From positions 101,184,001 to 101,248,000 of the forward strand of contig OZ024741.1 of NCBI GenBank assembly GCA_964016885.1: a DNA stretch of 64,000 nt. The letters run 5' to 3'. Of this stretch, positions 1 through 64,000 are shown in pieces (position 1 is the stretch's first letter; every line of letters starts with the position of its first letter). Source of the stretch: Eledone cirrhosa (taxonomy: Eukaryota). The position numbers were made by a program, and so were the translations under genes. The notes beneath the pieces were generated by a model that saw only the letters and a program-made list of their open reading frames with translations, ran no database searches and was not told where the DNA came from.

Positions 1-343
1 TAAGTTTGCTTTGCAAACATGAAGCCCTGGGTTGCATCCTACTTCATGGTGTCTTGGGCAAGTGGCTTTACTATAGCCTTAGGTTGACCTAAGCCTTGTG
101 AATGAAATTTGGTATATGGAAGCAATGTAGAAGCCTGTCAAATGGACTGTACCTGTAATTCAAAGGTCTGGCTTTCTCATTGTGTCAAATTGATTCAACC
201 TGTAAATTACATTCAGAGTACACGTGTCTGTGGAATACTCAACCATTTACACATTAATTCACATGTTCAACATCAAAACCAACAGAGGATCCACCATTTA
301 TCCATTACATTCATATGATAAATAGAGAGATAATTGATAGAAC

Positions 344-743
344 TGTAGTAAGAGTTGCCTCCCCTGCCACGACAATTGAATCGCTGTTCCCTAGACAGGA
401 AGTAGGTGGAGTTGCTTCCCTTTGGGATTGACCAAACTCCCTAGTGGTCACTTCCGGTCAACAGAGATAAAAGGAGCGATTAACCGCGAAATCTCTCTCT
501 CGCCTCCTGATTCCCGAAGTGGTAACATCTTCGACCATAGCTGGATTCTTTCTGGACGACCCTTTCGTTACCAGCACAATCCAGCTCACCAGCCTGACAA
601 CTTCACAATGGCATTATTGCCATCGGGTAACAACCCTTTACCTTATACACCTTTGACTTCTATGAAGTAAAACTTTATCACACACACCAGTACTCTTTGT
701 CTTTTATATTATGTTGCATGTGCACCGATATCTATTTCCTAAA
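344..743 (+). repeat. 5' LTR (400 bp)
   Basis: Begins TGTAGTAAGAG and ends TTCCTAAA; appears identical to 5981-6380 (ORF translations 422-670 and 6059-6307 are identical). Confidence 0.95.
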
Positions 744-744
744 G

Positions 745-762
745 TGGTGACCCCGACGTGAT
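745..762 (+). promoter_or_regulatory. Primer-binding site complementary to the tRNA-Trp 3' end
   Basis: TGGTGACCCCGACGTGAT is the reverse complement of the eukaryotic tRNA-Trp 3' 18 nt (ATCACGTCGGGGTCACCA), 1 nt after the LTR. Confidence 0.93.
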
Positions 763-1223
763 ATTTTTTTTTTTCAATGGGAAATGGTTATACGGTGTAT
801 CTGATATGATATAGGACACAAACAAAAAAAAGAAAAAAGAGAAAAATATAACACCTACAATTATTGACACGCAGACAAACCACAATTCTATAAATGTTTT
901 CACCATCCTCATTTTCTCTCCTTTTTCTGCCTTTCGCTTCTCTCGCAAAAAAATAATTTTTACGAGGATGACAAGATGGAGTCTCTCTTCTTTTTAAATA
1001 GTGTTTTGGCGCGAAATAGTCCGCCATGTTGGATTTTTTTTTTTGTTGAGTTTTTAGGCCCCCCGAAATTAACGTAGATAACAGCATTCAAGTAATCGCT
1101 GGTTCGCACACTGTCCCGGATGCATTAGTTTTCCGGTTCAGTGCTCTGACGAAAGATTTTAGTTTCCATTTACTGTTACCTTAGAGACATTTTCCCCATA
1201 CGGTAGATCACTACGGCATACCA

Positions 1224-2018
1224 ATGGCTTCCCACTCTGTTCTGCCAACGTACACGGGCGACGTAAGGTTGTGGTTCTCGCAATTAGAAGCTTTCTTCAG
1301 GGCGAACAGAGTCGACGAGGAACTACAGCATTCTGTGGTCCTCAGTGCCATTCCGCCGGCAATTCTCCCAGCGGTCAAGGACCTCGTGTTGGAGGCAACG
1401 GCAGAGTCGTCGTACGCGTCTCTGAAGGCTGAAATACTCAGCCGGACAGAACAGTCGTCAGAGAGGAGATTTAGGGCTCTGGTCCACCTGGAGCACATAG
1501 GGGATGGCACACCATCGAACCTCCTTAGGCGGATGAAGGACCTAACGGAGGGGTCTGCAGCGGAGACTGCCCTGCTGAAGCAGTTGTTCTTTTCGCGCCT
1601 GCCGACGAACGTACAGGCAATTTTGGCCCCCATGAGGGATTCGAGCTCGGTTGAGCAGCTTGCCTCATCGGCGGACAAGATATTCGAGGTGACGAATGCC
1701 GGAGACAGTGACCCCCTCGCCGCTGTTCAACACCCAGCTCGGGCCACACACGGCCATGCGATCTACGCGGCAGCACCAACGGATAGCTTGGCGATCATTG
1801 CGATGCAAAGGTCCATTCAGGAGCTCACCATGGAGCTCCACAAGATGAAGGCCTTGTGTGGTGGCTGTTCGCGCGCCCGCAGTCGCGGGAGATCGCAAAG
1901 TTTCAGACGACGGTCCAAATCACCTGGTTCAGCCTTATGCTGGTACCACGAGCGGTTCGCGGAGAACGCGAAGCACTGCGTGCAACCTTGCTCCTATCAT
2001 AAGGCGGGAAACGCTTAA
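1224..2018 (+). CDS. gag: Gag polyprotein
   Basis: 264-aa ORF with [17 protein letters not shown] and a C-terminal CWYH...C...C motif typical of metazoan Gypsy Gag. Confidence 0.92.
2006..2012 (+). promoter_or_regulatory. -1 ribosomal frameshift slippery heptamer G GGA AAC
   Basis: X XXY YYZ in gag phase two codons before the gag stop; the -1 frame is open (CGC TTA AGA GGT CCT CTG ATG) straight into pol at 2030. Confidence 0.85.
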
Positions 2019-2029
2019 GAGGTCCTCTG

Positions 2030-5000
2030 ATGGGGACAGATGGCCTCAACATAAAGCCACCAAACCGCCATTTCTTCATTAAGGACCTAATATCCGGAAG
2101 AGGTTTCCTCGTGGATACAGGAGCCTCCTGTAGTATCTGGCCGGTCCATTGCCTGAAAGATACCCCCATAGAGTCATCTGTCACGCTGCAGGCAGTTAAC
2201 CACTCGTCTATAAAGACGTACGGGCAAATCTCGCTCCCTCTTAAATTCCTAAATCTTCGAAGGGATTTTAAGTGGATTTTTACGGTTGCCGATTTGCCAT
2301 ATCCCATCTTAGGAGCGGATTTCCTCCACAACTTCTCTTTAACTGTGGACGTCCGTGGCCAACGCCTGGTGGATAACATCACCGGCTTTTCAATTCATGG
2401 CCAGGAAGCCAAGGCCCCAATAGTCAGCCCCGTGTTCTTTATTGCTGCCGCTGGTGACGCTTACCATGCGTTACTGGGTTCTTTCCCGGAGCTCACGGAT
2501 GGAAATTTTCGAGTCACTGACCCAACACACTCGACCGAACATTTTGTTTCCACCACCGGTGCCCCAGTGTTTTCGCGCCCACGCCGCTTACCGACGGAAA
2601 AATTAAAGGCAGCACGGTCCGAGTTCGACCATATGCTGCAGCTGGGCATTATTCGCCCATCTACGAGTCCTTGGGCTTCACCGTTACACATGGTGCCCAA
2701 GACTTCCGGCGACTGGAGACCCACAGGGGATTATAGGAGGTTAAATGCCATGACCGTCCCGGATAGGTATCCCATTCCCCATCTCCACGATTTTGCATCT
2801 TCACTGCAGGGGTGTAGGATTTTTTCTAAGCTAGATTTAGTGCGAGCCTACCACCAAATTCCGGTCAGGAAGGAGGATATTCCGAAAACTGCAATTACAA
2901 CCCCTTTCGGATCATTCGAATTTTTGACCATGCCTTTCGGACTCAGGAACGCCGCTAGCACTTTTCAGCGGTTCATGGACGAGGTCACGCGTGGTCTGGA
3001 CTTCGTTTATGCTTACATAGACGATATTCTCGTCGCTAGTTCCTCTCCGGAAGAGCATATGCGCCACATGCTTCTCTTGCTTCGGCGACTTCAGGATTAC
3101 CGCGTTCGCGTGAATCCTGCAAAGTGTGTTTTCGGTTCCACTTCCCTACATTTTTTAGGCCACCTCATCGACGCCGAAGGTATTAGGCCGCTCCCTGAGC
3201 GAGTTCAAGCCATACAGGAGTTACCGCCGCCTACTACACTTCACCAGTTGCGTCACTTCTTAGGCCTAATCAATTTCTATAGGCGTTTCATTCCTCATTG
3301 TGCTAATTGGCTATCTTCCCTTACTGACATTTTAAAAAAACGTCGTAAGAAGAATGAAGACATTTCCTTGACACAAGGACAGCTTCAGGACTTCCAGTCT
3401 GCCAAGACAGCCCTCGCTAGTTCTTCTTTGCTAGCCCACCCGGTACCAGAGGCCAAGCTTTCGCTTTGTGTTGATGCATCTGATACCGCTGTGGGTGCAG
3501 TTTTACAGCAGTCTTACGCTGAAAGCCAACAACCTTTGGCATTTTTCTCGAGGAAGTTGAAACCAGCAGAAACGCGTTATAGCACGTTTGGGCGAGAATT
3601 ATTAGCCATATATCTGTCGGTGAAACATTTCTCTCATATCCTTGAGGGGAGAAATTTTACGGTTTTTACCGACCACAAACCGTTGACCTTCGCTTTGAGG
3701 GCCAAAGCCGACAGATATTCGCCCAGAGAGACAAGGCACCTGGACTACGTTTCACAATTTACAAACGATATCCAGCACATTGCCGGCTCGCACAACATAG
3801 TTGCAGACGCATTATCTCGTTTGCCAATTAGCTCCATCTCGTCATCCCAGGACATCGATTTAGGTCGTTTAGCTGCAGACCAACCTGCACTCCAATCGTT
3901 GGACACTCTTTCCACCGAATTTGCGACTTGCATTTTCAAATATCTGCCCTTGTCCACCACCGACAGGCAGATCCTTTGTGATGTATCCACTGATGCACCA
4001 CGACCACTTGTTCCTGAGACTCACCGTCGAATTGTGTTCCTGGCTCTGCACAACATTTCTCATCCAGGATCGGCTGCCACAGTTAAACTTATAACAGCCA
4101 GATTCTTCTGGCCTAATATGAGGCGAGACATTGCTGTTTTTTGCCGTTCCTGTATCGCTTGCCAGAAATCGAAGATCCATAGACACATCCGGACTCCACT
4201 TGGTACTTTCACCACTCCAGATGCCCGGTTTCAACACATCCACATTGACATCGTTGGACCTTGGCCATTCAGCAGTGGATATTCATACATATTGACGTGT
4301 GTCGATCGTTTTTCGAGATGGCCTGAGGCCATCCCTTTACAAGACATGACGGCTGAGACTGTAGCACGTGCCCTGGTATCAGGGTGGATTACCCGCTTTG
4401 GGGTACCAACTACACTCACGACAGACCGCGGTAGACAATTCGAGTCCCATCTCTTCTCTGAGCTCACAAAAATAATTGGAGCTCAACGGATTCGGACCAC
4501 GGCCTATCATCCTGCTTCCAATGGAATGGTGGAACGATTCCACCGCCAATTAAAGGCCGCTCTTCGCGCCTATCCAGACTCTCAACGTTGGAGCGAGTAC
4601 CTTCCTATTGTGTTATTAGGAATTCGGTCATCAATAAAGGAGGACCTTGGGTTCTCCCCGGCCGAATTAATCTACGGTGCTCCTCTAGCGTTGCCTGGGC
4701 AAATGCTTGCCCCTGTTGATCTTGCTTTCCAAGATCCGCTTTCCTACGTATCCCGTCTGCGTTCTTATTTACAGGACCTGCCGCCGATGGATACGAGGAA
4801 GCAAACTGTAAAACATGCGGTCCCGAGGGACATTGCCTCGTGGACCCATGTGTTCGTAAGGAACGATGCTGTGAGACCACCCCTCACACAACCATACTCT
4901 GGACCCTACCGTGTGTTAGCACGCACTGACAAACATTTCACAGTAGACGTTAAGGGGTCCAGAGAGACAATTTCGGTGGATAGACTGAAAAGGGCACACA

Positions 5001-5158
5001 ATGACGCTCATACACCCGAGCCACAAATACCCCAATCTTTCACCATTGTGCATACACCTGCTCCTTCTGCCCCACCATCACCTACATACAAGACTACGAC
5101 CCGTTCCGGTCGGAGAGTCCACTGGCCCAAAAAGTTCTGCCAAACTATTTTTATATGA
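2030..5158 (+). CDS. pol: Pol polyprotein (aspartic protease, reverse transcriptase, RNase H, integrase)
   Basis: LVDTGA protease; YIDD RT; DAS/RELL/TDH/ADALSR RNase H; H..H..C..C zinc finger plus HIDIVG/TDRG/GMVER integrase; no stops in 1042 aa. Confidence 0.97.
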
Positions 5159-5545
5159 ACTGGCCATTGGAGCCTTATATATATATATATATATTTTTTT
5201 GTTTTTGCTGTTCTTATTTATTTGATTTATTGTATTGCAATGTACCTCTCATTTCACTGGATGTATATATATGTTTTTTCGTTTCCTTTACAATGAACAT
5301 GTTAAGCTACATTCTTCTCTTTGCCGGTTTATAAGTTTGCAATGTAAATTTACCGTTGATAACCGCGCATTTAGTAAGAATGCTTATTTCTCTGGTCGCT
5401 GGCCTCTGGACCCTTCCAGATCAACGCATTCTCAACATCGACCATCAACTTCGGCTGCTATTTCTAGCACTTTGCGCAACTCATTTTTTCTGAAAAATTT
5501 TTTGTCTACTGTGAGTTTAAACACCGAATACGCTCACTCAGCGAG

Positions 5546-5682
5546 ACAACAGCAGCAACAACAGCAGCAGCAACAGCAATACAGCAGCAACAGCAATACA
5601 GCAGCAACAGCAATACAGCAGCAACAACAGCAATACAACAGCAGCAACAGCAACAGCAATACAGCAACAACAGCAACAGCAA
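5546..5682 (+). repeat. (CAG/CAA)n compound microsatellite in the retrotransposon 3' untranslated region
   Basis: Direct reading: CAACAGCAGCAACAACAGCAG... interrupted by CAATA. Confidence 0.9.
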
Positions 5683-5968
5683 CCAAAGCCAGAGAATTTA
5701 TTTTTGCAGCACTCTTCCTGTGAGAAAATCCATTCGGAGGTTGGAAATTCACGATATACCACAGAACAGAGACCACCTGCATTCATTCTCTGGAACACAC
5801 TTTCTTTCCTGCTGTCATGTGACTGCACACCTGTGAACTATATTTTGTACATTTGAACTTTTGACATCTCTTACTTCCATTACTCTGTACCATATTTTTC
5901 ATGCCTCTTACATGCTCGCCATCTTACTCCATGCATGCTTCTTTCGATTTTTTATGTTTTAAAAATCT

Positions 5969-5980
5969 GGCGGGGGATAC
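5969..5980 (+). promoter_or_regulatory. Polypurine tract (plus-strand primer)
   Basis: GGCGGGGGATAC immediately upstream of the 3' LTR TG. Confidence 0.7.
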
Positions 5981-6380
5981 TGTAGTAAGAGTTGCCTCCC
6001 CTGCCACGACAATTGAATCGCTGTTCCCTAGACAGGAAGTAGGTGGAGTTGCTTCCCTTTGGGATTGACCAAACTCCCTAGTGGTCACTTCCGGTCAACA
6101 GAGATAAAAGGAGCGATTAACCGCGAAATCTCTCTCTCGCCTCCTGATTCCCGAAGTGGTAACATCTTCGACCATAGCTGGATTCTTTCTGGACGACCCT
6201 TTCGTTACCAGCACAATCCAGCTCACCAGCCTGACAACTTCACAATGGCATTATTGCCATCGGGTAACAACCCTTTACCTTATACACCTTTGACTTCTAT
6301 GAAGTAAAACTTTATCACACACACCAGTACTCTTTGTCTTTTATATTATGTTGCATGTGCACCGATATCTATTTCCTAAA
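5981..6380 (+). repeat. 3' LTR (400 bp)
   Basis: Copy of 344-743. Confidence 0.95.
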
Positions 6381-7110
6381 GTGTCTTGGGCAAGTGGCTT
6401 TACTATAGCCTTAGGTTGACCTAAGCCTTGTGAATGAAATTTGGTATATGGAAGCAATGTAGAAGCCTGTCAAATGGACTGTACCTGTAATTCAAAGGTC
6501 TGGCTTTCTCATTGTGTCAAATTGATTCAACCTGTAAATTACATTCAGAGTACACGTGTCTGTGGAATACTCAACCATTTACACATTAATTCACATGTTC
6601 AACATCAAAACCAACAGAGGATCCACCATTTATCCATTACATTCATATGATAAATAGAGAGATAATTGATAGAAGTGATAAAGAGAGAGATAATTGCTGG
6701 AACTTTCCAGAACAGAGATATCCAATATGTATTTATCCACTTGACACAGACATGGGTAAGTGATTAATAAGTTTGCTTTGCAAACATGAAGCCCTGGGTT
6801 GCATCCTACTTCATGGTGTCTTGGGCAAGTGGCTTTACTATAGCCTTAGGTTGACCTAAGCCTTGTGAATGAAATTTGGTATATGGAAGCAATGTAGAAG
6901 CCTGTCAAATGGACTGTACCTGTAATTCAAAGGTCTGGCTTTCTCATTGTGTCAAATTGATTCAACCTGTAAATTACATTCAGAGTACACGTGTCTGTGG
7001 AATACTCAACCATTTACACATTAATTCACATGTTCAACATCAAAACCAACAGAGGATCCACCATTTATCCATTACATTCATATGATAAATAGAGAGATAA
7101 TTGATAGAAC
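6381..7110 (+). repeat. Tandem duplication (435-bp period) of a SINE-containing host segment; further copy at 1-343
   Basis: 6381-6674 = 49-342 and 6768-7110 = 1-343; identical ORF translations at 109, 6441 and 6876; diverged relatives at ~18190, ~30170, ~41300. Confidence 0.9.
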
Positions 7111-7628
7111 TTTCCAGAACAGGAATATTCATATAAAATATCAACACTACACTCTGTAAAATGGTTGGCATTAGGAAGGGTATCAGGTCATAGAAAGCAT
7201 GCCAAAAGGGGAATGTATATCCAGGGAAAAAAATATTCTGAATAAGTACTGTCTTGGACCAAAATGACCCATCCAACCCATAGAAAAATAGATGTAAATG
7301 ATGACGTTTCATACAAATATGCTTTAATATTAGTTGACTTACAAAGCTTTGGGGAATTTGGAAATGTAGTTTACACAATGCAGATAACTATAAATAATAG
7401 TTGATAGCTCTAAATAATAATAAAATATATCAGGTAAAGTACACCTAGAGATGAAAAAAGGTAGACTGAGATGCCTACAGTGAAGTGAAGCATTTCTGTC
7501 CACTTTTTCCATTTCCAGGGGTACTTTACTTAGTATATTTAACTATTATTTAGAGTTATCAACTATTATTATAGTTATTTGCATTGTCACAACTATATTT
7601 TCAAATTTCAAGTATCTTTTAATCTTAC

Positions 7629-10800: not shown

Positions 10801-13800
10801 AAACTTCTGACACTCAGAAATACAGGCTCTGTGAAAAAAAATTGGAAAATGTAACCCACTTAGTAAGTGGATGTGAGAGCCTTGCACACAAAAAAAAAAA
10901 AATACAAGCGCCATTATGATAAAATCTGTCTATACCTTCATTGACATTATCAGCTACTCCCACACAATCCCAGGATAATATTCTTTAAAATTATAATGGA
11001 TCAGAATGTAATTAAGTAAAAATTACTACTTTGCTATTAAACAATCACCATTTTCCATGTAGAAAGACAGTTGTTGTAGATCATTTCTTAAATCAACCTC
11101 TAGTTCAGGGTTTTCCTTACTAATATAAAATGGTTTCAGGGTTGGGTGGGTTGTGATGCTTTGAATCACATCTTATATGAAAGTACTGTCCTCTTAGATG
11201 GGTCAGAGGACCATGTCTCATATGTTCTAATTTTTGGCATGCTTTCTACACCTACTACTTTGCCGAGGGTACAGGGTGCATTCTATCATGACACTAACAC
11301 TAGTGGATTTGTCTGGAAACACACAAGCCTGAAAAGTACTCTGACAGGAACCAGGCTAAGTGAGTATGAAAGAGAAGATAGATATTTCTGTGTAGATGGG
11401 AGAGTGATGGTGGAGAAAAATGCCTAAAATAATTTAATACAAATGCACAAAGACAATAACATGCATAAAAACTTACCGACAGTCCATATACTGTATGTTA
11501 CTAATAACCGGAGGTAGATTATCCATCGTCTCAGTATAGAGTGGAACCAAATTAAGGTCCTCAGCCTGTCGTCTATAGCAGAGAGCCATATTGAATTCAT
11601 CTTGGCAGGACTTAGAACTTAAGTAGGATGTAGTGAGAATAATTATAATACTGTTGAGAAAGAAAAACAAGAGCTGTTAGATAATTTATCTATGTAGGTT
11701 AAGAGGGCTCTTTATTTGTGTCAAGGGCACAACAGCTCCTCTAGTTTTGGTGACACAATAAAATGTACCTAGTATACTTTGTTAAATGGTTGGTGATAAT
11801 AGGGCATTCAGTTATTGAAAACTTGCTAAACATCTAGTTGGAAGGACTCTTCAGTTGTCAAAAAATTGACAGCCTCTCTAGTGCTGGTTCCACAACAAAA
11901 TGCACCTGGTGCACTATGTATCAGGAAGGAACATATGTGAGATATGGCCTTTAGCCTGTCTGAGAGGTCAGTGGCTCCAATTAAGTATTGACTTGGTCCG
12001 TGAAGATCCATTCAACCCTTGCAAGCAGGTAAAATGGATGTTTAATGATGTTGAATGTGATTATACCACTGAAGATTTATGAGCTAACAAAGATGAGTGG
12101 CCATGTTATGGAATACTCAACCACATACTCTATAATACATGATGGACTGTACTTGTGATTCTGTTATACTTTGTCATACTGAGTCTCTTTGAGAATTGCA
12201 TTACTGGTGCAGAATAATCATCTATTTACATGCTAATTTTACAAGTTGTCTATTCCATTGATTGAACATTTGGGACACTCAATCATATTATAACCATTCA
12301 ACCATAAAATTAGATAGACCAAAATAATTAGAGTAATTATTGATTAACAAACAATATACTTGATAGTCAAAGTACATTACTTTATTACTGTATCAAAATA
12401 GACATAGTAGATATTAGTATGTTTCAGCTGTACTAAGTGGTTGAAAAATACTATAAATTTGTATCTGTACAGAAACAGCACAAGATTTAACCAAAGCTGT
12501 GAGAACTGTGTACATAAACACACACAGTTATAGGTGTAAAAATGTCTTCAAAATCTGAAAATGATGATAAATGTGCTCACATGGCATATGTGAGATGTAT
12601 GGTGCTATTCCCTGCAGGCACCTCTTTTTCCTACTTTTTTTCCATCACCAGGAGTACTTTACCCCCTTTGTTCAACTATTATTTATAGTTATCAACTATT
12701 ATTATAGTTATCTGCGGTTATAGGGCAGTGGATTGGCAGTATCAGTAGAGGGTCGGATGCCATTCTTTGCAGCAAAGAGTTACGGCCCTTTATGATCTGA
12801 GTTCAAATGCTGAGGTTAACTTTGCCTTCCATCCTTACGGGGTCGATAAAATAAAGTACCAGGAATACACTGGAATAATTGCTGGCCTTGTGCCAAAAGT
12901 AGAAACAATTATTATAGTTATCTGCATTGTGACCACTAAATTTTAAAATTTCAAGCTTCATAATACTTCATAAGTCAACTGGATGTTTAAATATTCAGAA
13001 AACGAAGAAAATTACCATTTACATCCAAACATACAGGAGTATACTTTTTCAGGCCAGATATCTTTTTCATCAACTTTTATCTTTTTATGAAAAACCTTTA
13101 CATTTGAATTACACTTTTCCAGCGATTCTTTCAGTAATTTTGCCTTATTTGAGTCTGTTTGGCTGTAGGAAATATACACATCATTCAAATTCTTTTGTTT
13201 CGAAATCTGTAAAAAAAAAATTTAGAGTGAAAAAGTCTGACACCAATTATTATTTGGCAACAAAGTGATTCTCTCGCTGAGTGAAACATAGATTATATGA
13301 TGTCTGCGTATGAAATGCAATGCTGTATGTTAGTGAGGTAAGGACATTGAATGTAGAGGATGTGTGAAGGTTAGAAAGAAATGAAGCTAGTATGCTTTGC
13401 AGAATGTGTAATGCTGGTGCACATGAACATAAGGCACAGACGAGTTGAAGGAGAAACTGGACATAAGAAGAATCAGATACACTGTATTAGAGAGAAGATT
13501 GCAGTGGTATGGAAAGGTGATGTATATGAATGATGATCATTGGATGTAGAAGTGCTAAGAGTTCCTAGTAGATGAAAGTTGTAAAATAGGAAGATTGACA
13601 AAAACCTGAGCAGAGGTGGTGAGAGTTTATCTCAAAACACAGAACCTCACAGAAGAGAGCATAAGTAAAGGAAAGCTCTACTGGAGAAGACCCATCCAAC
13701 CCATAAAATGGATGTAAAAATGACGGTGATAATATTACCTTTAAAAGATTGGATTTTTCCCAGACTTTCTTCAAATCTTTAAATGTAGCAATACATTTTT

Positions 13801-20800: not shown

Positions 20801-23515
20801 CTTGAGAGTTAAATATTGGCATAAAACCTCTGAACATATCTCCTATTTGATCAAGTATATTGCAACCTAATCGTCTGTAATACAAAACAATAAATTAATC
20901 AACTTCAATAAAAATAGAATTTTTAACGTATGTAAGCTGGTACAATGCAAGTTTGACAATTAAATAGTCGAACAAGTTGGGCATATTAACCCCTGGAGAT
21001 GGAAAAAAGTGGATAGAATCTTCTGTGGGAATTGAATTCACATCTACTGTATGTTAGACAGCTGTGCTATCATTACACCAAGGTGAGACTGACCACTTCT
21101 CCATCCTTTTTTAAGCCTTATCGTCAAACCTAGTCATTTTGATGATGCAACAAAAGTTACTGTAAAGTGGTCATTTTAGTGCCACGACATAAAGCAACCA
21201 ATCCATACTGTAGAGTGGTTGTGTTGGCGACATGACAAAAAGTGCCCAGTCTACGCTGTAAAGTGATTGTTTTGATGCCACAATAAAAGGCACCCAATCT
21301 ACACTGTAAAGTGATTGTTTTGATGCCACAATAAAAGGCACCCAGTCCATATTGTAAATGTGGTCAACATTAGGAAGGGCATCCAAGTAGAAACCAAGCC
21401 AGAAACGCTTCTGTATAAGCAAGACATGGTCATCTGATCTGACTTGTCTCATAACAGGACAACCCATCTAACCCATGCTACCATGGAAAATGGACATTAA
21501 ACAATGATGATGATGATGAGTGAATATGAATTTTGAAAATATGTTAGTTTCTTGTAAGCTGCTACAATATTTGTTTGATTATTAAATAGTAGAAGCTAGG
21601 CATATAAATCCCTAGAGATGGGAAAAAGTAGACAGTATCACCTGTGGGAAGTGAACTCACGTTTGCCATTACATTACATCAAAGTAACTCTCTCATTACT
21701 ATAAATCAAATAAAAACATAGACTATGATTTTCAAATCATTTTGAGGGAGTTAGTAATATAGTAACTAATTTTTTTGCTGTTTGAAGCATAGCTTAACAA
21801 AGGTTTTTTCACTTAAAATTATAATGGAAGGTTTTTAGATAAATAAATAAATGATAAAACAAAATAGACACAAACCTTTCAAAACATGCCAGTCTTAAGA
21901 ATGGAACATCTTCTGGTAAGGGCTTGGATAACCAGCATGAAAAATATTTTCTTAAATCTAATTCTTTATCCAAAGCAAGATCATACACTGACACTTTCAG
22001 TTTTTTTAGCAGTGCTTGGATTAAAGTTTTACTTGTAGTGTTGTAATTATCTGAAATACAAGAAAATGTTAGATTTAAAAGATGACAATTGTTCAGTTTA
22101 CTGATTTCGGTGAAGCTGGGACATTGCTTTGAAGGAATTTTTAGTCGATAATATTAACACCAGTACATATTTTTTCAAGTCTGGTACTTATTTTATCAAT
22201 CACTTTTTGTCAAACAACTAAGTTATATGACAATAAAGGACATAAAAACACACAAATACAGGCCTCCACTAAATTTTACAACTAAGTTATATGACAATAA
22301 AGGACATAAAAACACACAAATACAGGCCTCCACTAAATTTTACTCATAAGGCATTGATCAACCTAAGGATAAAGTAGAAGACACTTGCCCAAGGCATCAT
22401 ACAGCAGGACTGTACCCGAAACTATGTCATTGCAAAGCAAATTCCATGCCAGCATCTATAAGTTAAAAATAAAATTGAAGTCAGTCTGAAGCACTGAGGA
22501 GCATAAGACCAGAGCATATCTCAACTCCATATGGTGGTAAATTATTAGGAGTATTAGACTCCTCTTTGGATAACATGCCAGTCACAAGGTTAATCTCTAG
22601 CTGTTGTTGATATTCATTTTTCAGCTGAGGGGAATAGAGCAACATGAAATAAAGTGCCTTGCTCCACCACCTGGCCAAGGAGTCAAACCCACTACCTTAT
22701 AATCATGAGGCTAACACTGTAAATACAATGTCACATACCTTCACTAAGACTGAAGATATACAGATATATTGCCAACACAATACCAATTCAAGTATATAAC
22801 AATAATGATGTTGATGATATCCTTCCTGATGGCAACCTTTTTAGTCACCTCTTATAACACACAGGGATACAGTATACCTATTCTAAAAACTGGGATCCAC
22901 ATATCATGACTAAAAACATAAAAATACATAGCAAGGTTTAACATTTTAATCGGGTCAAAAAAGAAAGTCCAATTAGGAACCCAGTTCATTCTAAGCAGGA
23001 AACTTTCAATTCCTTAGCTCAACTCACAAAATGACTAATCAGCAATGTAACACATACAATGATCCTAGAAGTAAGAGTCTAAATGCTTGGTATCCCACTT
23101 TAATCCTTTTGTTACTCTATTTCTAATGAAATACACTGTATTTGAATTAATCTAATTAATGAAAACTTTGGAGGGATTTACAAAAAATATGACATTATAT
23201 TATTTAGATGGTATTTATAATATAACAAAAGATCCTCATATCAAATTATATTAGGAGGTTTTAATTTGAATAGGAACCCTTTAAAATAAGTGGCTCTGTT
23301 TTATAGAACCAGGGGCAGTTTAGGGTTGGTTGGTACAAAAAGGGTTAATATTGTGAATGTTTAATGCTTAGATACTTACTAGGGAAAGCTGATACGATGA
23401 GTAAATCAACTTTGTCTTTCTCCTTATAACTTGTGATGTCTCCCAGAAGAAGTTCAATCTGGCAAAGACCATGCATGGTTGAAAGGGACAAAGTTTCAAC
23501 TGTCTTCAAACCCAT
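7629..23515 (-). CDS. Spliced gene encoding a Macro domain-TIR-TIR(partial) protein, at least 410 aa, 3' end beyond the left edge; join(23380-23515,21876-22050,20760-20874,13739-13933,13016-13206,11477-11650,7629-7873)
   Basis: Seven exons with canonical AG/GT sites and matching phases (1,2,0,0,2,2) give a stop-free protein. Macro motifs: IELLLGDIT...VDLLIVSAFPN...TPLLGTGNQG...FKIVLY. TIR motifs: DVYISYS...IIIILTTSYLSSKSCQDEFNMAL...LVPLY, then YDIFVSY...KIFYDKLELQTG. Confidence 0.88.
8735..9485 (+). mobile_element. 3' fragment of an L1/Tx1-clade LINE (zinc-knuckle region, 3' UTR, (TTA)n tail)
   Basis: DKLYRYG...CQRC...ETVLHAITQC CCHC motif, frameshifted continuation, AATAAA followed by ATTATTATT. 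Confidence 0.6.
9790..10945 (+). mobile_element. Degenerate fragments of a restriction-like-endonuclease non-LTR retrotransposon
   Basis: IIDVACPFDTRVKEKE...YQDL-like/VVPIIIGVLGT RLE motif at 9878-10040; HPKANINRLY, QDQAL and RLC...ENVTHLVSGCESLA remnants at 10400-10930; many stops. Confidence 0.7.
11477..11650 (-). CDS. Macro-TIR gene exon (TIR1 C-half): CIIIILTTSYLSSKSCQDEFNMALCYRRQAEDLNLVPLYTETMDNLPPVISNIQYMDC
   Basis: ctcaacag acceptor, gtaagt donor; TIR betaC-alphaC motif with Glu at 11596-11598. Confidence 0.9.
12716..12907 (+). mobile_element. tRNA-derived SINE with 18-bp TSD
   Basis: A box TGGCAGTATCAG, B box GAGTTCAAAT; TSD ATTATTATAGTTATCTGC at 12698-12715 and 12908-12925; family members at ~16800, 17320, 20385, 25638, 31900, 33270, 38310, 40200, 41695. 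Confidence 0.85.
13016..13206 (-). CDS. Macro-TIR gene exon (TIR1 N-half): ISKQKNLNDVYISYSQTDSNKAKLLKESLEKCNSNVKVFHKKIKVDEKDIWPEKVYSCMFGCK
   Basis: poly-T-acag acceptor, gtaat donor; TIR box-1-like DVYISYS. Confidence 0.88.
13235..13660 (+). mobile_element. Degraded RTE-clade LINE 3' fragment
   Basis: Similar to 26950-27330 (RLYDACV..AMLYGSE.W, LERNEASML, RRLRWYG motifs) with indels. Confidence 0.7.
13739..13933 (-). CDS. Macro-TIR gene exon (end of Macro domain): GFGMIPVLIAMVEAACNWMKIGLPLKCFKIVLYTSD...VWEKSNLLK
   Basis: tttatag acceptor, gtaata donor, 65 whole codons, phase 0/0. Confidence 0.86.
14228..14738 (+). mobile_element. SINE or RTE-LINE 3' element with (GAT)n tail and tandemly amplified ~35-45-bp internal module
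   Basis: Repeated GCCA(C/T)(A/G)ATAAAA...CCCAGTACAC..TGTAAA units, then TGGTTGGCATTA.GAAG.GCATC and CAGCATGGAAAACGAATGTAAAAC(GAT)n; relatives at ~7150, 9530, 17820, 21180, 27440, 28150, 30330. Confidence 0.75.
17639..17820. repeat. (TA)n and (TG)n microsatellites
   Basis: Direct reading. Confidence 0.95.
20760..20874 (-). CDS. Macro-TIR gene exon: RRLGCNILDQIGDMFRGFMPIFNSQDTTVITPLLGTGNQ
   Basis: ttacag acceptor, gtgagt donor; P-x-L-G-T-G phosphate-binding loop of Macro domains. Confidence 0.88.
21876..22050 (-). CDS. Macro-TIR gene exon: NNYNTTSKTLIQALLKKLKVSVYDLALDKELDLRKYFSCWLSKPLPEDVPFLRLACFE
   Basis: tttcag acceptor, gtttgt donor; phases 1/2 fit both neighbours. Confidence 0.85.
23104..23344. 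mobile_element. piggyBac-type MITE with TTAA target duplication; inverted diverged copy at ~20119-20375
   Basis: TTAA|TCCTTTTGTTAC ... GGTACAAAAAGGG|TTAA. Confidence 0.65.
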
Positions 23516-23847: not shown

Positions 23848-25160
23848 TATCATCATCATCATTTTACATCCGTTTTTCCCTGCTTCCAAGGGTGGGATGG
23901 GTCCTATTCAGCACAGCATCTCTCCACTTGTCACGGTCCTTCGTCATCTCCTCTGTGAGGTTCAGCGATCTGAGGTCCGCTCTCATCACATCCGCCATGT
24001 TTTTCATGGTCTTCCTTTACTGGGATTTCTTGGCACTTGTTTACCCAGCAGTCATCCTCCATGCGCATCACATGTCCATACCATCGCAGTCTTCTCTCCT
24101 GCACATTACAACTTATTCCTCTTATACACAGTTTCTCTCTCAACTCATCTATGCTTGGTTGTTCACGCACATTGACATTGTACATCCAACGGAGCATACT
24201 TGCTTCATTTCTCTCCAGCCGTTGCATATCCTCTGCAGTTGCTGCCCATGTCTCACTACCATGCAGCATCGCGCATCTCACACAGGCATCATATAACCGG
24301 CCTTTCATACGCAGGGAGAAACCCTTCTTTGTCGACAGAGGAAGCAACTCCCTAAACTTCTTCCAACCCATCCTTATTTTAGATACTATGGCCTTGGAAC
24401 ACCCTCCTCCCATGCTAATCTGATCACCTAAGTACCGGAAGCTATCAACCACTTCTATAGAACCTACCTGCTTTTGAAAAATGTGTCTATCACTGTGTCC
24501 TACTGTCAAATTTCCCTGTACATATACTGCATACATAGTTTTCCCTACCTGTTAGTTTGCCTGCTATCCCACTACATCTCTTGTGTACCCAAGATCTGCA
24601 TTGTGTACATTTTATAGAGTTTATGCCAGCTCCTTTTCTACATATCGAACATTGTCATTTCCCTGACGGAATCAGAGTTTTGTCCTCTTTTCTACTTATC
24701 AACACTTTTGTCTTAACTAGGTTCACTCTCAGTCCTCTTGATTCCAACGGCTGTTTGCATAGCCAGAATTTATTCTCTAGCTCCTCTACTGATTCTGATA
24801 TAAGAACCAGACTGTCAGCATAGAGAAGTTCCCATGGACAGCCAGTCTTAAACTCCTCTCTTATGGCTTGGAGGACTATAATGAACAAGAGTGTACTGAA
24901 TTCCTCACTAAACTCCACTCCTACCCTCACTTTACTGACAGCACCTCTGTACATAGCTTGCACTGTCCTAACAAGCCATTCCTCTACACCTAGTTTCCTT
25001 AGGGACCACCAGTTGACAGATCGGGGTACCCTATCAAAGGCCTTCTCTAGGTCAACAAAAGCTAAGTATAGTGGCTTATTCTTCTCTAAGAACCTCTCTT
25101 GTAGTTGTCTCACTAAGAAGAGGGCATCTGTTGTACTTTTCCCAGGCACAAAACCATAAC
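23848..25160 (-). mobile_element. 5'-truncated, degenerate RTE-clade LINE
   Basis: PGKSTTDALFLVRQLQE...FVDLEKAFDRV...LLYAD, YLGD, RRLRWYGHV; (GAT)n tail at 23848-23862. Confidence 0.92.
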
Positions 25161-25164
25161 TTTG

Positions 25165-25920
25165 TGCATAATTTATATAAATTTAAACAATATACAAAAA
25201 AGTCTTTAATATATCTAATTGAGATCCCACTAATATCATGTACATATAATAAGTAATAAAAATACTTGCTCATAGAAATAATCAAACCAAGATTGTCTAA
25301 AGTTCACTTATACAGCCGTTTTATGATAAATTCCAAAATATGATGCCTATAACCGATCTAATGATTGGGCTTAATCACCAATCATCGATCTTAGTAACAA
25401 GCATCATCAAGACCAGGAAGCATCATTCATCAGTAAGTGTTTAAGGTCTTATTATATATATCTCACTCTGTACATTAAATAATCTACTGCCTAATGAAGA
25501 TGATCAAATAAAACCAATATCTCCCAAAAGACATCATATCGTGGAATTTATCATAAAATGGCCTTATAAGTGAACTTATGACAATCTTGCTTTGATTCTT
25601 TGTAGGAGTATATTAATTATTTATCATTATATCTATGGGCGGTAGATTGGCAGTATCGGTAGAGAGTCGGACACGGACACCATGCTTTGAAGCATAGTTA
25701 CGTCCCTTTATGATCTGAGTTCAAATTCCGCTGAGGTTAACTTTGCCTTTCATCCTTACTGGGTCGATAAAATAAAGTACCAGTAATGTACTGGGTAATT
25801 GCTGGCCTTGTGCCAAAAGTAGAAACAATTATATCTATGTACATGATTCTAATTGTTCCTCAACTAGATATATGAAAGAGACTGTTTTTGTATATTGTTT
25901 AAATTTGTATATATATATAT
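25165..25920. mobile_element. Foldback/MITE-like element with long imperfect inverted arms, interrupted by a SINE
   Basis: 25170-25350 is the reverse complement of 25530-25637 plus 25840-25915 (e.g. GTTCACTTATA..GCC.TTTTATGATAAATTCCA vs TGGAATTTATCATAAAATGGCCTTATAAGTGAAC). Confidence 0.75.
25638..25827 (+). mobile_element. tRNA-derived SINE with 12-bp TSD
   Basis: A/B boxes (TGGCAGTATCGG, GAGTTCAAATTCC); TSD ATTATATCTATG at 25626-25637 and 25828-25839. Confidence 0.87.
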
Positions 25921-26104
25921 ATAAAGTATTTCCATAGAAAAGGTAAAAGCAGGAAGAGTGCTCTATGTATGGGACAGAGCTATTTAATTATGTAATTAAA
26001 TTTAATATAAATTTTCCTTTCTGATAAACGACTTTGAACGCCTCTGTTGAGGTCGCCTGTCTTCATGAAACATTTGGTAAATGGAATAATTGTATTGTGT
26101 TGTT

Positions 26105-27715
26105 TAGAGGCACCACTGATGCCTTCTTCCTTGTGAGGCAGTTACAGGAAAAGTACCTAGCTAAAAGTAAGCCACTCTACCTGGCATTCGTCGATCTTGA
26201 GAAAGCTTTTGACAGAGTTCCATGTGCTGTAATCTGGTGGGATCTTAGAAAACTAGGAGTAGATGAATGGCTTGTGAAAGCTGTACAAGCCATGTATAGA
26301 GCAGTCAGCAAAGTTAGGATTAGCAATGAGTATAGCGAGGAATTTAACGTACAGGTTGGGGTTCACCAGGGCTCTGTTCTTAGCCCCCTCCTGTTCATCA
26401 TAGTCCTGCAGGCAATAACGGAGGAGTTTAAGACCGGATGCCCATGGGAACTCCTGTATGCTGATGACCTCGCACTTATAGCTGAATCTATGGTAGAACT
26501 AGAGAAGAAATTCCAAACTTGGAAGCAGGGACTAGAAAGAAAGGGTCTCAAAGTCAACATGACAAAGACTAAGGTCCTTGTAAGTAGACGAGAAGACAGA
26601 AGCCAGATCCCCTCAGGCAAATGGCCTTGCTCAGTATGTAGGAAAGGTGTAGGTAGGAACTCCATTCTCTGCCCCAAATGCAAACAATGGGTACACAAGA
26701 GATGTAGCAGGATCTCAGAAAGCTTAATTAAGAATGTAGGCTTCACATGCAGCAGCTGTGCTGGGACAGCAAGCAGCAAACAGCCACAGGAAACAAGTAC
26801 CACCAATCTCTGGGAGGGCTCTGTAGAAACAGTAGACAGCTTCTGCTACTTAGGTGACCGAATTAGCAGTGGAGGTGGGTGTTCAGAAAGTACAATAACT
26901 AGGGTAAGATCGGGATGGAATAAGTTTAGGGAACTACTACCACTGCTAGCTGCAAAAGGCTTCTCCCTCAAAATGAAAGGCAGACTGTATGATGCGTGTA
27001 TCCGAACAGCGATGTTGCATGGTAGTGAAACCTGGGCGCTGAAGGTGGAAGACTTACATAGATTAGAGAGAAACGAAGCCTGCATGCTCCGATGGATGTG
27101 TAATAGTAATATACACGAACGACAAAGCATAAATGAATTGAGAGAGAGAGACTGAGCATAAGAGGAATCAAATGCTGTGTGCAGGAGAGGCGGTTGCGTT
27201 GGTTTGGACATGTGATGCGTATGAAGGATGACAGCTGCATAAAAAGGTGCAGAGCACTAGAAGTCGATGGAAACTGCGGAGTGGGGAGACCCAAGATGAC
27301 CTGGGATGAGGTGATAAAAGCCGACCTTACCCAATTACACCTCTCAAAGATGATGACACACGACCGTGACCTCTGGCGTCACGCAGTAATACAGAGTACC
27401 CGACCTCCCATGGGTACAAGCTGAAGCATATAGACAATATGCCCCCCCCCCCCCACTGCAAGGTGGACGTGGAGGTGCCACGGCAAAAAAGCACCCAGCC
27501 CACACTGTAAAGTGGACGTGGAGGCGCCACGAAAAAGCACCCAGCATTCACTGTAAATGAGGTTGGTGTTAGGAAGGGCATCCAGCTGTAGAAATCAAGC
27601 CAAATCAGTTCCTGTATGAGCAAGGCATGGTCAGCCGCCAGACACTGCCCACAACTGGACAACCCGTCTAACCCATGCTAGTGTGGAAGAACGGACGTAA
27701 AACGGTGATGATGAT
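26105..27715 (+). mobile_element. 5'-truncated RTE-clade LINE (RT, internal Cys/His finger, C-terminus, 3' UTR)
   Basis: RGTTDAFFLVRQLQE, GVHQGSVLSP, LLYADD, YLGD; one frameshift near 27150; GATGATGAT tail. Confidence 0.95.
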
Positions 27716-51000: not shown

Positions 51001-54000
51001 AGTAATGGTGTTGTTGTTGTTGTTGTTGCTGGAGGGGGTATTGGAGTCACTGTTGTCAATAATGGTGTTGTTGTTGTTGCTGGAGGGGGTATTGGAGTCA
51101 CTGTTGTCAGTAATGGTGTTGTTGTTGTTGTTGCTGGAGGGTGTATTGGAGTCACTGTTGTCAATAATAGTGTTGTTGATGTTGTTGTTGTTGCTGGAGG
51201 GGGTATTGGAGTCACTGTTGTCAGTAATGGTGTTGTTGTTGTTGTTGCTGGAGGGGGTATTGGAGTCACTGTTGTGAATAATGGTGGTATTGTTGTTGTT
51301 GTTGTTGCTGGAGGGGGTATTGGAGTCACTGTTGTCAGTAATGGTGTTGTTGTTGTTGTTGTTGCTGGAGGAGGTATTGGAGTCACTGTTGTCAGTAATG
51401 GTGTTGTTGTTGTTGTTGTTGTTGCTGGAGGAGGTATTGGAGTCACTGTTGTGAATAATGGTGTTGTTGATGTTGTTGTTGTTGCTGGAGGGGGTATTGG
51501 AGTCACTGTTGTCAGTAATGGTGTTGTTGTTGTTGTTGCTGGAGGAGGTATTGGAGTCACTGTTGTCAGTAATGGTGTTGTTGTTGTTGTTGTTGCTGGA
51601 GGGGGTATTGGAGTCACTGTTGTCAATAATGGTGTTGTTGTTGTTGTTGCTGGAGGGGGTATTGGAGTCACTGTTGTCAATAATGGTGTTGTTGTTGTTG
51701 TTGCTGGAGGGGGTATTGGAGTCACTGTTGTCAATAATGGTGTTGTTGTTGTTGTTGTTGCTGGAGGGGGTATTGGAGTCACTGTTGTCAGTAATGGTGT
51801 TGTTGTTGTTGTTGCAGGAGGAGGTATTGGCGTCACTGTTGTCAGTAATGGTGTTGTTGTTGTTGTTGTTGTTGCTGGAGGAGGTATTGGAGTCACTGTT
51901 GTCAGTAATGGTGTTGTTGTTGTTGTTGCTGGAGGGGGTATTGGAGTCACTGTTGTCAGTAATGGTGTTGTTGTTGTTGTTGTTGGTGCTGGAGGAGGTA
52001 TTGGAGTCACTGTTGTCAGTAATGGTGTTGTTGTTGTTGTTGTTGCTGGAGGGGGTATTGGAGTCACTCTTGTCAATAATGGTGTTGTTGTTGTTGTTGC
52101 TGGAGGGGGTATTGGAGTCACTGTTGTCAATAATGGTGTTGTTGTTGTTGTTGTTGCTGGAGGAGGTATTGGAGTCACTGTTGTCAATAATGGTGTTGTT
52201 GTTGTTGTTGTTGCTGGAGGGGGTATTGGAGTCACTGTTGTCAGTAATGGTGTTGTTGTTGTTGTTGTTGCTGGAGGGGGTATTGGAGTCACTGTTGTCA
52301 ATAATGGTGTTGTTTTTGTTGTTGTTGCTGGAGGGGGTATTGGAGTCACTGTTGTCAATAATGGTGTTGTTTTTGTTGTTGTTGCTGGAGGGGGTATTGG
52401 AGTCACTGTTGTCAATAATGGTGTTGTTTTTGTTGTTGTTGCTGGAGGGGGTATTGGAGTCACTGTTGTCAATAATGGTGTTGTTTTTGTTGTTGTTGCT
52501 GGAGGGGGTATTGGAGTCACTGTTGTCAATAATGGTGTTGTTGTTGTTGTTGTTGCTGGAGGGGGTATTGGAGTCACTGTTGTCAATAATGGTGTTGTTG
52601 TTGTTGTTGTTGCTGGAGGGGGTATTGGAGTCACTGTTGTCAATAATGGTGTTGTTGTTGTTGTTGTTGCTGGAGGGGGTATTGGAGTCACTGTTGTCAA
52701 TAATGGTGTTGTTTTTGTTGTTGTTGCTGGAGGGGGTATTGGAGTCACTGTTGTCAATAATGGTGTTGTTGTTGTTGTTGCTGGAGGAGGTATTGGAGTC
52801 ACTGTTGTCAGTAATGGTGTTGTTGTTGTTGTTGCTGGAGTGGGTATTGGAGTCACTGTTGTCAGTAATGGTGTTGTTGTTGTTGTTGTTGGTGCTGGAG
52901 GAGGTATTGGAGTCACTGTTGTCAGTAATGGTGTTGTTGTTGTTGTTGTTGCTGGAGGGGGTATTGGAGTCACTGTTGTCAATAATGGTGTTGTTGTTGT
53001 TGTTGCTGGAGGGGGTATTGGAGTCACTGTTGTCAGTAATGGTGTTGTTGTTGTTGTTGTTGCTGGAGGAGGTATTGGAGTCACTGTTGTCAATAATGGT
53101 GTTGTTGTTGTTGTTGTTGCTGGAGGAGGTATTGGAGTCACTGTTGTCAGTAATGGTGTTGTTGTTGTTGTTGTTGCTGGAGGGGTATTGGAGTCACTGT
53201 TGTCAGTAATGGTGTTGTTGTTGTTGTTGTTGGTGCTGGAGGAGGTATTGGAGTCACTGTTGTCAGTAATGGTGTTGTTGTTGTTGTTGTTGCTGGAGGG
53301 GGTATTGGAGTCACTGTTGTCAATAATGGTGTTGTTGTTGTTGTTGCTGGAGGGGGTATTGGAGTCACTGTTGTCAGTAATGGTGTTGTTGTTGTTGTTG
53401 TTGCTGGAGGAGGTATTGGAGTCACTGTTGTCAATAATGGTGTTGTTGTTGTTGTTGTTGCTGGAGGAGGTATTGGAGTCACTGTTGTCAGTAATGGTGT
53501 TGTTGTTGTTGTTGTTGCTGGAGGGGTATTGGAGTCACTGTTGTCAGTAATGGTGTTGTTGTTGTTGTTGTTGGTGGAGGGGGTATTGGAGTCACTGTTG
53601 TCAGTAATGGTGTTGTTGATGTTGTTGTTGCTGGAGGGGGTATTGGAGTCACTGTTGTCAGTAATGGTGTTGTTGTTGTTGTTGTTGCTGGAGGGGGTAT
53701 TGGAGTCACTGTTGTCAATAATGGTGTTGTTGTTGTTGTTGTTGCTGGACGGGGTATTGGAGTCACTGTTGTCAATAATGGTGTTGTTGTTGTTGTTGTT
53801 GCTGGAGGAGGTATTGGAGTCACTGTTGTCAGTAATGGTGTTGTTGTTGTTGTTGTTGCTGGAGGAGGTATTGGAGTCACTGTTGTCAGTAATGGTGTTG
53901 TTGATGTTGTTGTTGCTGGAGGGGGTATTGGAGTCACTGTTGTCAGTAATGGTGTTGTTGTTGTTGTTGTTGCTGGAGGGGGTATTGGAGTCACTGTTGT

Positions 54001-63000: not shown

Positions 63001-64000
63001 TGTTGTTGTTGTTGCTGGAGGGGGTATTGGAGTCACTGTTGTCAGTAATGGTGTTGTTGTTGTTGTTGTTGGTGCTGGAGGGGGTATTGGAGTCACTGTT
63101 GTCAGTAATGGTGTTGTTGTTGTTGTTGTTGCTGGAGGGGGTATTGGAGTCACTGTTGTCAATAATGGTGTTGTTGTTGTTGTTGTTGCTGGAGGGGGTA
63201 TTGGAGTCACTGTTGTCAATAATGGTGTTGTTTTTGTTGTTGTTGCTGGAGGGGGTATTGGAGTCACTGTTGTCAATAATGGTGTTGTTGTTGTTGTTGC
63301 TGGAGGGGGTATTGGAGTCACTGTTGTCAGTAATGGTGTTGTTGTTGTTGTTGCTGGAGGGGGTATTGGAGTCACTGTTGTCAATAATGGTGTTGTTTTT
63401 GTTGTTGCTGGAGGGGGTATTGGAGTCACTGTTGTCAGTAATGGTGTTGTTGTTGTTGTTGCTGGAGGGGGTATTGGAGTCACTGTTGTCAATAATGGTG
63501 TTGTTGTTGTTGTTGCTGGAGGAGGTATTGGAGTCACTGTTGTCAGTAATGGTGTTGTTGTTGTTGTTGTTGCTGGAGGGGGTATTGGAGTCACTGTTGT
63601 CAATAATGGTGTTGTTGTTGTTGTTGTTGGTGGAGGGGGTATTGGAGTCACTGTTGTCAGTAATGGTGTTGTTGATGTTGTTGTTGCTGGAGGGGGTATT
63701 GGAGTCACTGTTGTCAGTAATGGTGTTGTTGTTGTTGTTGTTGCTGGAGGGGGTATTGGAGTCACTGTTGTCAGTAATGGTGTTGTTGTTGTTGTTGTTG
63801 CTGGAGGGGGTATTGGAGTCACTGTTGTCAATAATGGTGTTGTTGTTGTTGTTGTTGCTGGAGGGGGTATTGGAGTCACTGTTGTCAATAATGGTGTTGT
63901 TGTTGTTGTTGTTGCTGGAGGAGGTATTGGAGTCACTGTTGTCAGTAATGGTGTTGTTGTTGTTGTTGTTGCTGGAGGAGGTATTGGAGTCACTGTTGTC
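42015..64000 (-). CDS. Putative giant mucin-like Thr/Pro-rich exon (unit TTVTPIPPPATTTT(T)nPLL), stop at 42015, 5' end outside the window; two single-base frameshifts at ~53183 and ~53524
   Basis: No stop in the T/P frame across ~7300 codons; length variants are whole codons; the commonest substitutions are synonymous in this frame (TTG/CTG, CCC/CCT). Confidence 0.55.
42078..64000. repeat. Giant tandem array of mostly 54/57-bp units: GCTGGAGG(G/A)GGTATTGGAGTCACTGTTGTCA(A/G)TAATGGT(GTT)n, roughly 390 copies, continuing past the window end
   Basis: Direct reading; copy number estimated as ~21.9 kb divided by ~56 bp. Confidence 0.99.

Follow-up and report, generated by a model that had tools for sequence, protein, structure and literature searches.

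The window analysed here, 64,000 nucleotides of the Eledone cirrhosa genome (contig OZ024741.1, positions 101,184,001 to 101,248,000), carries on its minus strand the first part of a gene for a protein in which a Macro fold is followed by TIR domains in tandem. It is a real spliced gene, because its splice borders are intact, exons 1–7 join to give 410 codons with zero stops, and the predicted protein is 78.8% identical over 410 residues to Octopus bimaculoides XP_014768475 (LOC106867918; 861 aa). This orthologue, P0001, provides the residue numbering used below (E288, E444, D403, G410, D26, G140) and has three Pfam TIR_2 stretches. In the family to which these proteins belong, TIR2 keeps the βB Asp, BB-loop Gly and αC Glu, and TIR1 has lost the Asp and Gly. 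The best overall explanation, which we consider rather probable, is that TIR2 is an NAD+ glycohydrolase (NADase), TIR1 a structural partner, and the Macro domain a reader of the product.

Catalytic positions in TIR1 and TIR2

The initial annotation of this stretch proposed that TIR1 is enzymatic because it retains a Glu at the catalytic position, and the sequence features that it described are present. Exon 6 (11650–11477, minus strand) reads …T-S-Y-L-S-S-K-S-C-Q-D-E-F-N-M-A-L…, with the Glu codon, GAA, at 11598–11596; the TIR1 start DVYISYS and the loop VFHKKIKVDEKD are both in exon 5 (13206–13016), and the IFYDKLELQTG of TIR2 is in exon 7 (7873–7629). Exon 6 matches Pfam TIR_2 at E=1.5e-7. 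The Glu also falls in the TIR catalytic column: E288 of TIR1 and E444 of TIR2 share one column of a sequence alignment, and E444 is aligned with the Glu of WCLDE in 3jrn and of WPARE in 4lzp, again by sequence and with no residue-level superposition. To gauge chance, bases 1–42000 were translated in six frames: bare CxxE appears there 85 times, the longer pattern [YF]xxSxxCxxE[FYL] once. The C-x-x-E motif to which the Glu had been assigned needs correction. The catalytic motif as published is WxxxE (PMC10641520), and in the window's TIR1 the Trp site, which lies four residues before the Glu (−4), is occupied by Ser. SARM1 is not known to have the Cys of C-x-x-E.

TIR1 keeps the βA Ser-Tyr, the αB Trp and the αC Cys, and in the window Lys takes the place of the βB Asp as well as of the BB-loop Gly. 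The full-length P0001 model (predicted local distance difference test, pLDDT, 84; predicted template modelling score, pTM, 0.73) places the Macro domain at residues 1–205 and a TIR at 212–351; the domain folds are readable in it and the interfaces are not. TIR1 in this model resembles the TIR of the NADase RUN1 (Z 16.9, rmsd (root-mean-square deviation) 2.2, 137 aligned), a likeness of fold only.

Relatives were collected with phmmer from 1.84 billion representatives. There were 1403 matches, of which 150 were listed; all family counts given here rest on the listed 150, and 144 of these yielded a Macro-led module. Column tallies use 36 multi-TIR candidates. The joint presence of the βB Asp, BB Gly and αC Glu was scored on full-length domain slices: 29 TIR1, 27 TIR2 and 105 single-TIR. 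The catalytic column of TIR1 is mostly Gln (E 4, Q 20, L 3, M 2, K 1, H 1, gap 5), as it is among the 29 full TIR1 domains (Glu 4, Gln 19), whereas in TIR2 it is Glu throughout (E 29, gap 7). All three residues are found together in 27/27 TIR2 and 99/105 single-TIR Macro–TIR homologues but in 0/29 TIR1, and none of the four Glu-bearing TIR1s has either the Asp or the Gly. At −4, TIR1 has Ser in the window and Phe in O. bimaculoides, and is aromatic in 1/29 (seven commonest residues counted); the commonly found residue is Val in TIR2 (22/27) and in the single TIRs (49/105).

Conservation of the two TIRs is reciprocal. Measured against the consensus of the 105 single TIRs, the βA–αC half (34 columns) scores 0.72 in TIR2 and 0.54 in TIR1, and the βD–αE half (18 columns) scores 0.67 in TIR1 and 0.26 in TIR2 (Mann-Whitney p=1.5e-5). 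As a possible mark of Macro docking, the βD–αE motif was looked for in the extra TIRs of seven prokaryotic multi-TIR proteins; they do not match it, but are distant TIR types.

The proposal of an enzymatic TIR1 is probably wrong, given the loss of the βB Asp and BB-loop Gly, the absence of the full set from every TIR1 and the prevalence of Gln; TIR1 is very probably not the main catalyst, and TIR2 is probably catalytic, as a candidate NADase. A division of labour had also been suggested. The two TIRs have indeed diverged in role, but the direction is most likely the reverse of that proposed, because TIR1 lost the Asp and Gly and TIR2 keeps all three residues in every case; a split in which TIR2 is the NADase and TIR1 is structural is likely from this pattern. 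It should be noted that the Glu alone is a weak indicator of activity, since published work finds it to be common in inactive TIRs. It is reported in more than 70% of all TIRs and more than 90% of the TLR1/2/6/10 group (PMC7075850). Outside the TLRs it is present in the majority of animal TIRs, and a screen scored only 12 of 61 animal TIRs with the Glu as active (10.64898/2026.04.20.719644). Having the Glu no longer sets an invertebrate TIR apart; it is the family itself that is worth following.

The Glu of the octopus TIR1 looks like a secondary Gln→Glu regain, which is the simplest reading because one base change suffices. All 30 TIR1s in the tree, including that of octopus, form one group (support 99/87). 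In a tree built without the catalytic column (31 rows), the Glu-bearing TIR1s are in two lineages, with a minimum of two changes; the gains are placed in the octopus pair, within the mollusc group (100/99), and in the Tubulanus pair. A tree constrained to hold all four as one group is rejected at the borderline (approximately unbiased test, p-AU 0.046). It is probably the case that the regained Glu did not restore catalysis. Gene conversion from TIR2 was considered as a source of the Glu and rejected: the octopus TIR1 groups with other TIR1s and its flanks are of TIR1 type.

The Macro domain and a proposed mechanism

The domain adjoining TIR1 had been named as a Macro domain, and structural models of two relatives agree. 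An AlphaFold model of the Macro-only relative P0110 (107-row alignment, pLDDT 94) matches macroH2A1.1 (Foldseek E 2.5e-9), a PARP14 macro domain (VIA Z 17.3, rmsd 2.9, 179 aligned), Af1521 (VIA Z 16.5) and EcThsA (VIA Z 12.6, rmsd 3.4, 175 aligned), and the P0001 model has the same fold (VIA Z 17.7). The N-terminal ~200 residues of the orthologue have no Pfam Macro match; Pfam, NCBIfam and PADLOC gave matches in the TIR region only, which fell short of, or had no bearing on, membership of a system.

The Asp of the GD motif is involved in adenine binding in Macro domains. This motif (D26) is kept in 139/144 family members and the loop-2 Gly (G140) in 134/144; both positions are aligned to Af1521 and PARP15. 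MacroD-type ADP-ribose (ADPR) hydrolases are marked by an Asn after β2 and an aromatic loop-2 residue (GIY/FG). The octopus Macro domain lacks these residues, with Gln at the Tyr position of Af1521 GIYG, and so looks like a non-hydrolytic reader of ADP-ribose rather than a hydrolase. On balance we expect that it binds a ligand of the ADPR type.

The protein would be cytosolic, arranged as Macro fold, TIR1, TIR2, TIR3 and a low-complexity tail, often with a CaaX end. CaaX-type C-termini are found in 13 of 32 multi-TIR proteins, several of which are partial, versus 0 of 111 others. In octopus, the later gene model P0151 ends in CIIL; CVLI and CSIL are examples from other members. Such ends suggest prenylation and membrane anchoring; the end of the protein lies outside the window.

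The octopus gene probably descends from a Macro–TIR module still present, with a single canonical TIR, in bacteria and archaea, the functions of TIR1 and TIR2 being divided after TIR duplication. TIR2, having kept the face formed by βA, the βB Asp, the BB Gly and the αC Glu, is the likely NADase. The active site of AbTir and SARM1 is shared between two TIRs: the Glu and BB loop come from one, and contacts to the adenine from the other. In AbTir, the BB-loop variant G174A has almost no activity, and the formation of cyclic products depends on an aromatic residue at W204 (10.1101/2022.05.07.491051). G410 of TIR2 is aligned with the Gly of TcpB VGDSLR, and from the shared motif we infer that it corresponds to AbTir G174. 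A linear ADPR or a base-exchange adduct would be expected as product rather than a cyclic isomer, because −4 is commonly Val in TIR2 and single TIRs and an aromatic at W204 is required for cyclic products. Such a product belongs to the class of ligands that Macro domains bind, so the Macro domain could sense it or feed back on it; the Macro domain of ThsA is reported to bind ADPR as well as IAD (imidazole adenine dinucleotide) and not 2'/3'cADPR (PMC11204291).

TIR1 would have lost the catalytic face and become a structural partner. Since it keeps the ancestral βD–αE half, it may dock the Macro domain, as in the single-TIR ancestor, or supply the adenine side of the TIR2 active site in cis, or do both. 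A more specific version of the latter is tentative: the tandem TIR1–TIR2 as a single-chain, pre-organised NADase with a composite site in cis, requiring no filament and gated by an ADPR-sensing Macro domain at the membrane. Its composite site, for which we would claim equally little confidence, would take the Glu and BB loop from TIR2 and an adenine-binding βD–βE face from a dead TIR1. If true, eukaryotes would have elaborated a prokaryotic Macro–TIR module that is itself undescribed, and an animal would possess a TIR enzyme site of heteromeric build. The family likely combines an ADPR-type writer and reader in one chain. Two questions become testable with it: do animals signal with ADPR compounds made by TIRs and read by a dedicated domain, and can unlike TIRs build one active site? 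For assays, the 335-residue prokaryotic forms are simple models. An immune role would be consistent with the domain content.

Several points weigh against an NADase TIR2 read by the Macro domain. Of the TIR2 set, the window shows only the βB Asp and one base, the first, of the Gly codon; the Glu lies beyond and is read from the O. bimaculoides orthologue. The case for TIR2 catalysis is one of conservation, and possession of Glu, Asp and Gly does not guarantee activity: TLR2, IL-1R9 and IL-1R10 are reported to retain the Glu and yet to be inactive (10.64898/2026.04.20.719644). The correspondence of D403 to the plant BB-Asp is approximate, as plant TIRs have two adjacent Asp there. All 150 sequences come from one search seeded by the octopus protein (150 of 1403 matches), and alignment columns and related sequences are non-independent, so that p-values are descriptive. 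The Glu of TIR1 is kept both in octopus and in the sister P0002 despite a long branch, which could mean selection. In the Macro domain, Val stands in the column of the Asn of PARP15 VNS, which leaves ADPR binding uncertain. The prokaryotic loci examined show no conserved effector neighbour or defence island.

The protein might instead be a non-enzymatic adaptor: the Macro domain would recognise ADP-ribosylated targets, the three TIRs would build a scaffold tethered to the membrane, and the TIR2 residues would be structural. We regard this as unlikely, if the most serious competitor. When solved structures are searched by sequence, TLR and MyD88 TIRs do come first or close to it, the αC Glu may serve a function other than catalysis (PMC7075850), and the CaaX ends suit a tethered scaffold. 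The 49 of 61 Glu-bearing animal TIRs that gave no measured product (10.64898/2026.04.20.719644) point the same way, but that screen used isolated domains, and His-ADPR, N7-cADPR and ADPR adducts were outside its readout. An invariant Asp/Gly/Glu set common to TIR2 and the prokaryotic single-TIR forms, and lost in the sibling TIR1, is as expected of catalytic constraint. A further alternative, somewhat less probable again, is that the octopus TIR1 is itself an active NADase which uses its retained or regained Glu, with the Macro domain binding its product. The position of the Glu in the catalytic column, its presence in the window, O. bimaculoides and P0002, the retained Ser-Tyr, Trp and Cys and the fold likeness to RUN1 are in its favour; they are outweighed by the Lys at both partner sites in the window, the lack of Asp or Gly in any Glu-bearing TIR1, the 25 of 29 full TIR1 domains without Glu, and the frequency of the Glu in inactive TIRs. 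It is very improbable that a recent long terminal repeat (LTR) retrotransposon with identical LTRs disrupted the gene after exon 7 and freed the TIR1 residues from selection: the 7.6 kb beyond exon 7 has no exon for residues 411–861, but all seven exons have open frames, canonical splice sites and 79% identity, other introns of the gene reach 6.8 kb so that the next exon may lie past the window edge, and the complete gene of O. bimaculoides also carries this Glu.

Known systems, relatives and ancestry

The known system closest to the preferred arrangement, an NADase TIR2 with a structural TIR1 and a Macro reader, is type II Thoeris. There the TIR protein ThsB is functionally paired with ThsA, a transmembrane (TM) Macro protein, and a linear ADPR-type signal is reported to bind the Macro domain (PMC11204291, 10.64898/2025.12.03.692087); the octopus Macro fold also matches EcThsA, as given above. 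Unlike Thoeris, octopus has Macro and TIR in one chain, with no TM effector and no Pfam ThsA_Macro match, and its Macro domain is closer in fold to PARP14, PARP9, macroH2A and Af1521. A separate TM-Macro effector gene was not found among 22 open reading frames (a hand-picked subset) of prokaryotic Macro–TIR loci. The paired plant TIR-NLRs RRS1 and RPS4 offer a second likeness: the sensor TIR is described as lacking the Glu or BB-Asp, and the executor as keeping both (PMC13732033). They are two proteins with NB-ARC and LRR domains, whereas the octopus TIRs are in tandem in one polypeptide behind a Macro domain. By analogy, the octopus protein would work like a fused type II Thoeris writer–reader and like the dead/live RRS1/RPS4 pair, but it is a member of neither.

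SARM1, AbTir and RUN1 share the TIR fold, the αC Glu column and the BB-loop Gly with the TIR2 of the octopus family, a likeness known from sequence and fold; the family differs in having no Trp at −4 and no ARM/SAM or coiled-coil domains. Macro-PARP readers (PARP14 macro 2, PARP15 macro 2, PARP9, macroH2A1.1) provide the best fold matches (Z 16–17.7) and share the GD motif and the P-x-x-G-T-G-N loop 2. They differ in that identity is 10–19%, below Pfam Macro detection, and in that the octopus family has Val for the Asn of VNS, the motifs DLRxxFSCWLS and CFE, and in animals a fusion to TIR rather than to an ADP-ribosyltransferase (ART). The ecTIR-DC proteins of invertebrates (Gerdol et al. 2017, cited second-hand from PMC6321704) are likewise conserved intracellular TIR proteins absent from vertebrates; no Macro domain is mentioned in the description given in PMC6321704. 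Literature searches found no description of the family, and 'Macro-TIR' or 'TIR-Macro' with Thoeris returned zero; these searches did not cover Burroughs & Aravind 2020, Gerdol 2017 or the screen supplements (10.64898/2026.04.20.719644, Tables S1–S4). Macro–TIR×3 is an unstudied variant of known TIR/Macro systems.

Among the matches listed, Macro–TIR×3 is distributed across molluscs, a brachiopod, a nemertean and echinoderms. Multi-TIR members are named from Lottia, Pinctada, Batillaria, Haliotis, Lingula, Tubulanus, Amphiura, Diadema and Acanthaster, with a degraded form in Macrostomum. Three deep-branching Macro–TIR×3 proteins (P0085, P0100, P0138) are sister to the animal forms and have a degenerate TIR1, a canonical TIR2 and Phe at −4; they may be from non-animal eukaryotes. 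Most other listed matches have a Macro domain and one TIR in ~335–440 aa, or are fused to further domains. Among 33 proteins scanned, such fusions (metagenome proteins P0033, P0034, P0056, P0064, P0065, P0067, P0075, P0089) involve Hsp70, Ser/Thr kinase, the type VI secretion system (T6SS) sheath VipA/VipB, glycosyltransferase, NUDIX, CHAT/AAA, FHA and RyR domains, and recall the conflict systems of complex bacteria.

Named prokaryotic carriers are metagenome-assembled genomes (MAGs) of Solimonas, Crenothrix, Gemmatimonadales, Cyanobacteria, Alphaproteobacteria, Mycobacterium and Heimdallarchaeota (7/10 loci full-length). From these carriers we infer that the single-TIR proteins are prokaryotic, and the Macro–TIR core is, by sequence matching, shared with several bacterial phyla and an archaeal MAG. 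Animal and prokaryotic forms share ancestry. Profiles of the two groups match with probability 100 over 340 columns, and the Atlas cluster ranking gives 0.97 for a eukaryotic, mostly molluscan cluster and 0.96 and 0.95 for bacterial ones. A supported branch sets the multi-TIR forms apart in Macro trees (Shimodaira–Hasegawa-like approximate likelihood ratio test, SH-aLRT, 96 in a quick tree of 143 rows); with 65 chosen rows its support is 100/94, the bootstrap being not fully settled. The trees are unrooted and no donor is claimed. Asgard ancestry was considered and rejected: the Heimdallarchaeota copy (L015 5976–7274, in a MAG of 28% GC) does not group with the multi-TIR clade.

A conserved operon was not seen in the six metagenome loci and 7/10 genome loci examined; in a few, TIR, TIR–NB-ARC or transposase genes are scattered nearby. 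With P0052 as the sole query, a genome scan gave no match. Ralstonia megaplasmids contain two adjacent genes of the same Macro clade (L001 4019–8027, L002 5058–7572), one of them joined to a domain that resembles an ADP-ribosyltransferase (Pfam E 1.7e-4, below cut-off). A DUF6508 gene comes after the two and, in L001, a sphingomyelinase-like phosphoesterase as well. Of the records matched to this clade, 133/137 are Ralstonia. The fusion thus provides a second link to NAD and ADP-ribose chemistry.

Gene structure and repeats in the window

Seven coding exons are in view, all on the minus strand; each has a GT donor, and exons 2–7 have an AG acceptor. Exon 1 (23515–23380, ATG at 23515) begins the Macro fold with the motifs GDIT and DLLIVSAFP and matches P0001 residues 1–48 at 79% by tblastn. 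Exon 2 (22050–21876) encodes the core of the Macro domain with the family motifs DLRKYFSCWLS and CFE; as a query it has a single protein match, the O. bimaculoides orthologue. Exon 3 (20874–20760) contains Macro loop 2 (PLLGTGNQ, like PARP15 PAIGTGNAG), and exon 4 (13933–13739) the end of the Macro domain and a linker helix. Exon 5 encodes TIR1 βA–αB, with Lys (codon from 13086) at the βB Asp site and no BB-loop Gly. Exon 6 encodes βC–βE, with the Glu (residue 289 of the window protein, Gln in most orthologues) and the TIR1-specific half P-x-Y…LP…QY-x-DCR. Exon 7 contains TIR1 αE, a linker and TIR2 from βA to the BB loop (YDIFVSY; IFYD, Asp codon from 7650), and stops at the BB Gly.

The remaining stretch, 1–7628, is presumed to be part of intron 7. 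Exons for residues ~411–861 (the TIR2 catalytic helix, TIR3 and the tail) were not found in the window by tblastn with P0001, P0151 and P0002. An LTR retrotransposon fills most of these 7.6 kb. The element is full-length (343–6383, plus strand), with a gag-like reading frame at 1185–2015 (DUF7041) and an intact 1042-aa pol at 2030–5158 (reverse transcriptase, RNase H, integrase). Its two LTRs are 100% identical across 405 bp, and the insertion is therefore very recent. Exact duplicates flank it (1–344 = 6768–7111; 49–342 = 6381–6674); either local duplication or an assembly artefact could apply.

Just upstream of the gene are fragments of the long interspersed nuclear element (LINE) type at 23934–25182 (minus) and 26028–27152 (plus), with RVT_1 and, in one, a PHD finger. 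From 42078 to the window end at 64000 there is a 57-bp tandem array of ~390 copies (94% match). Translated in one minus-strand frame, it gives a mucin-like repeat rich in Thr and Pro, (TTVTPIPPPATTTTTTPLL)n, which stays open for more than 3500 codons either side of a frame change near 53150–53530; the array could be a giant mucin exon or a satellite.

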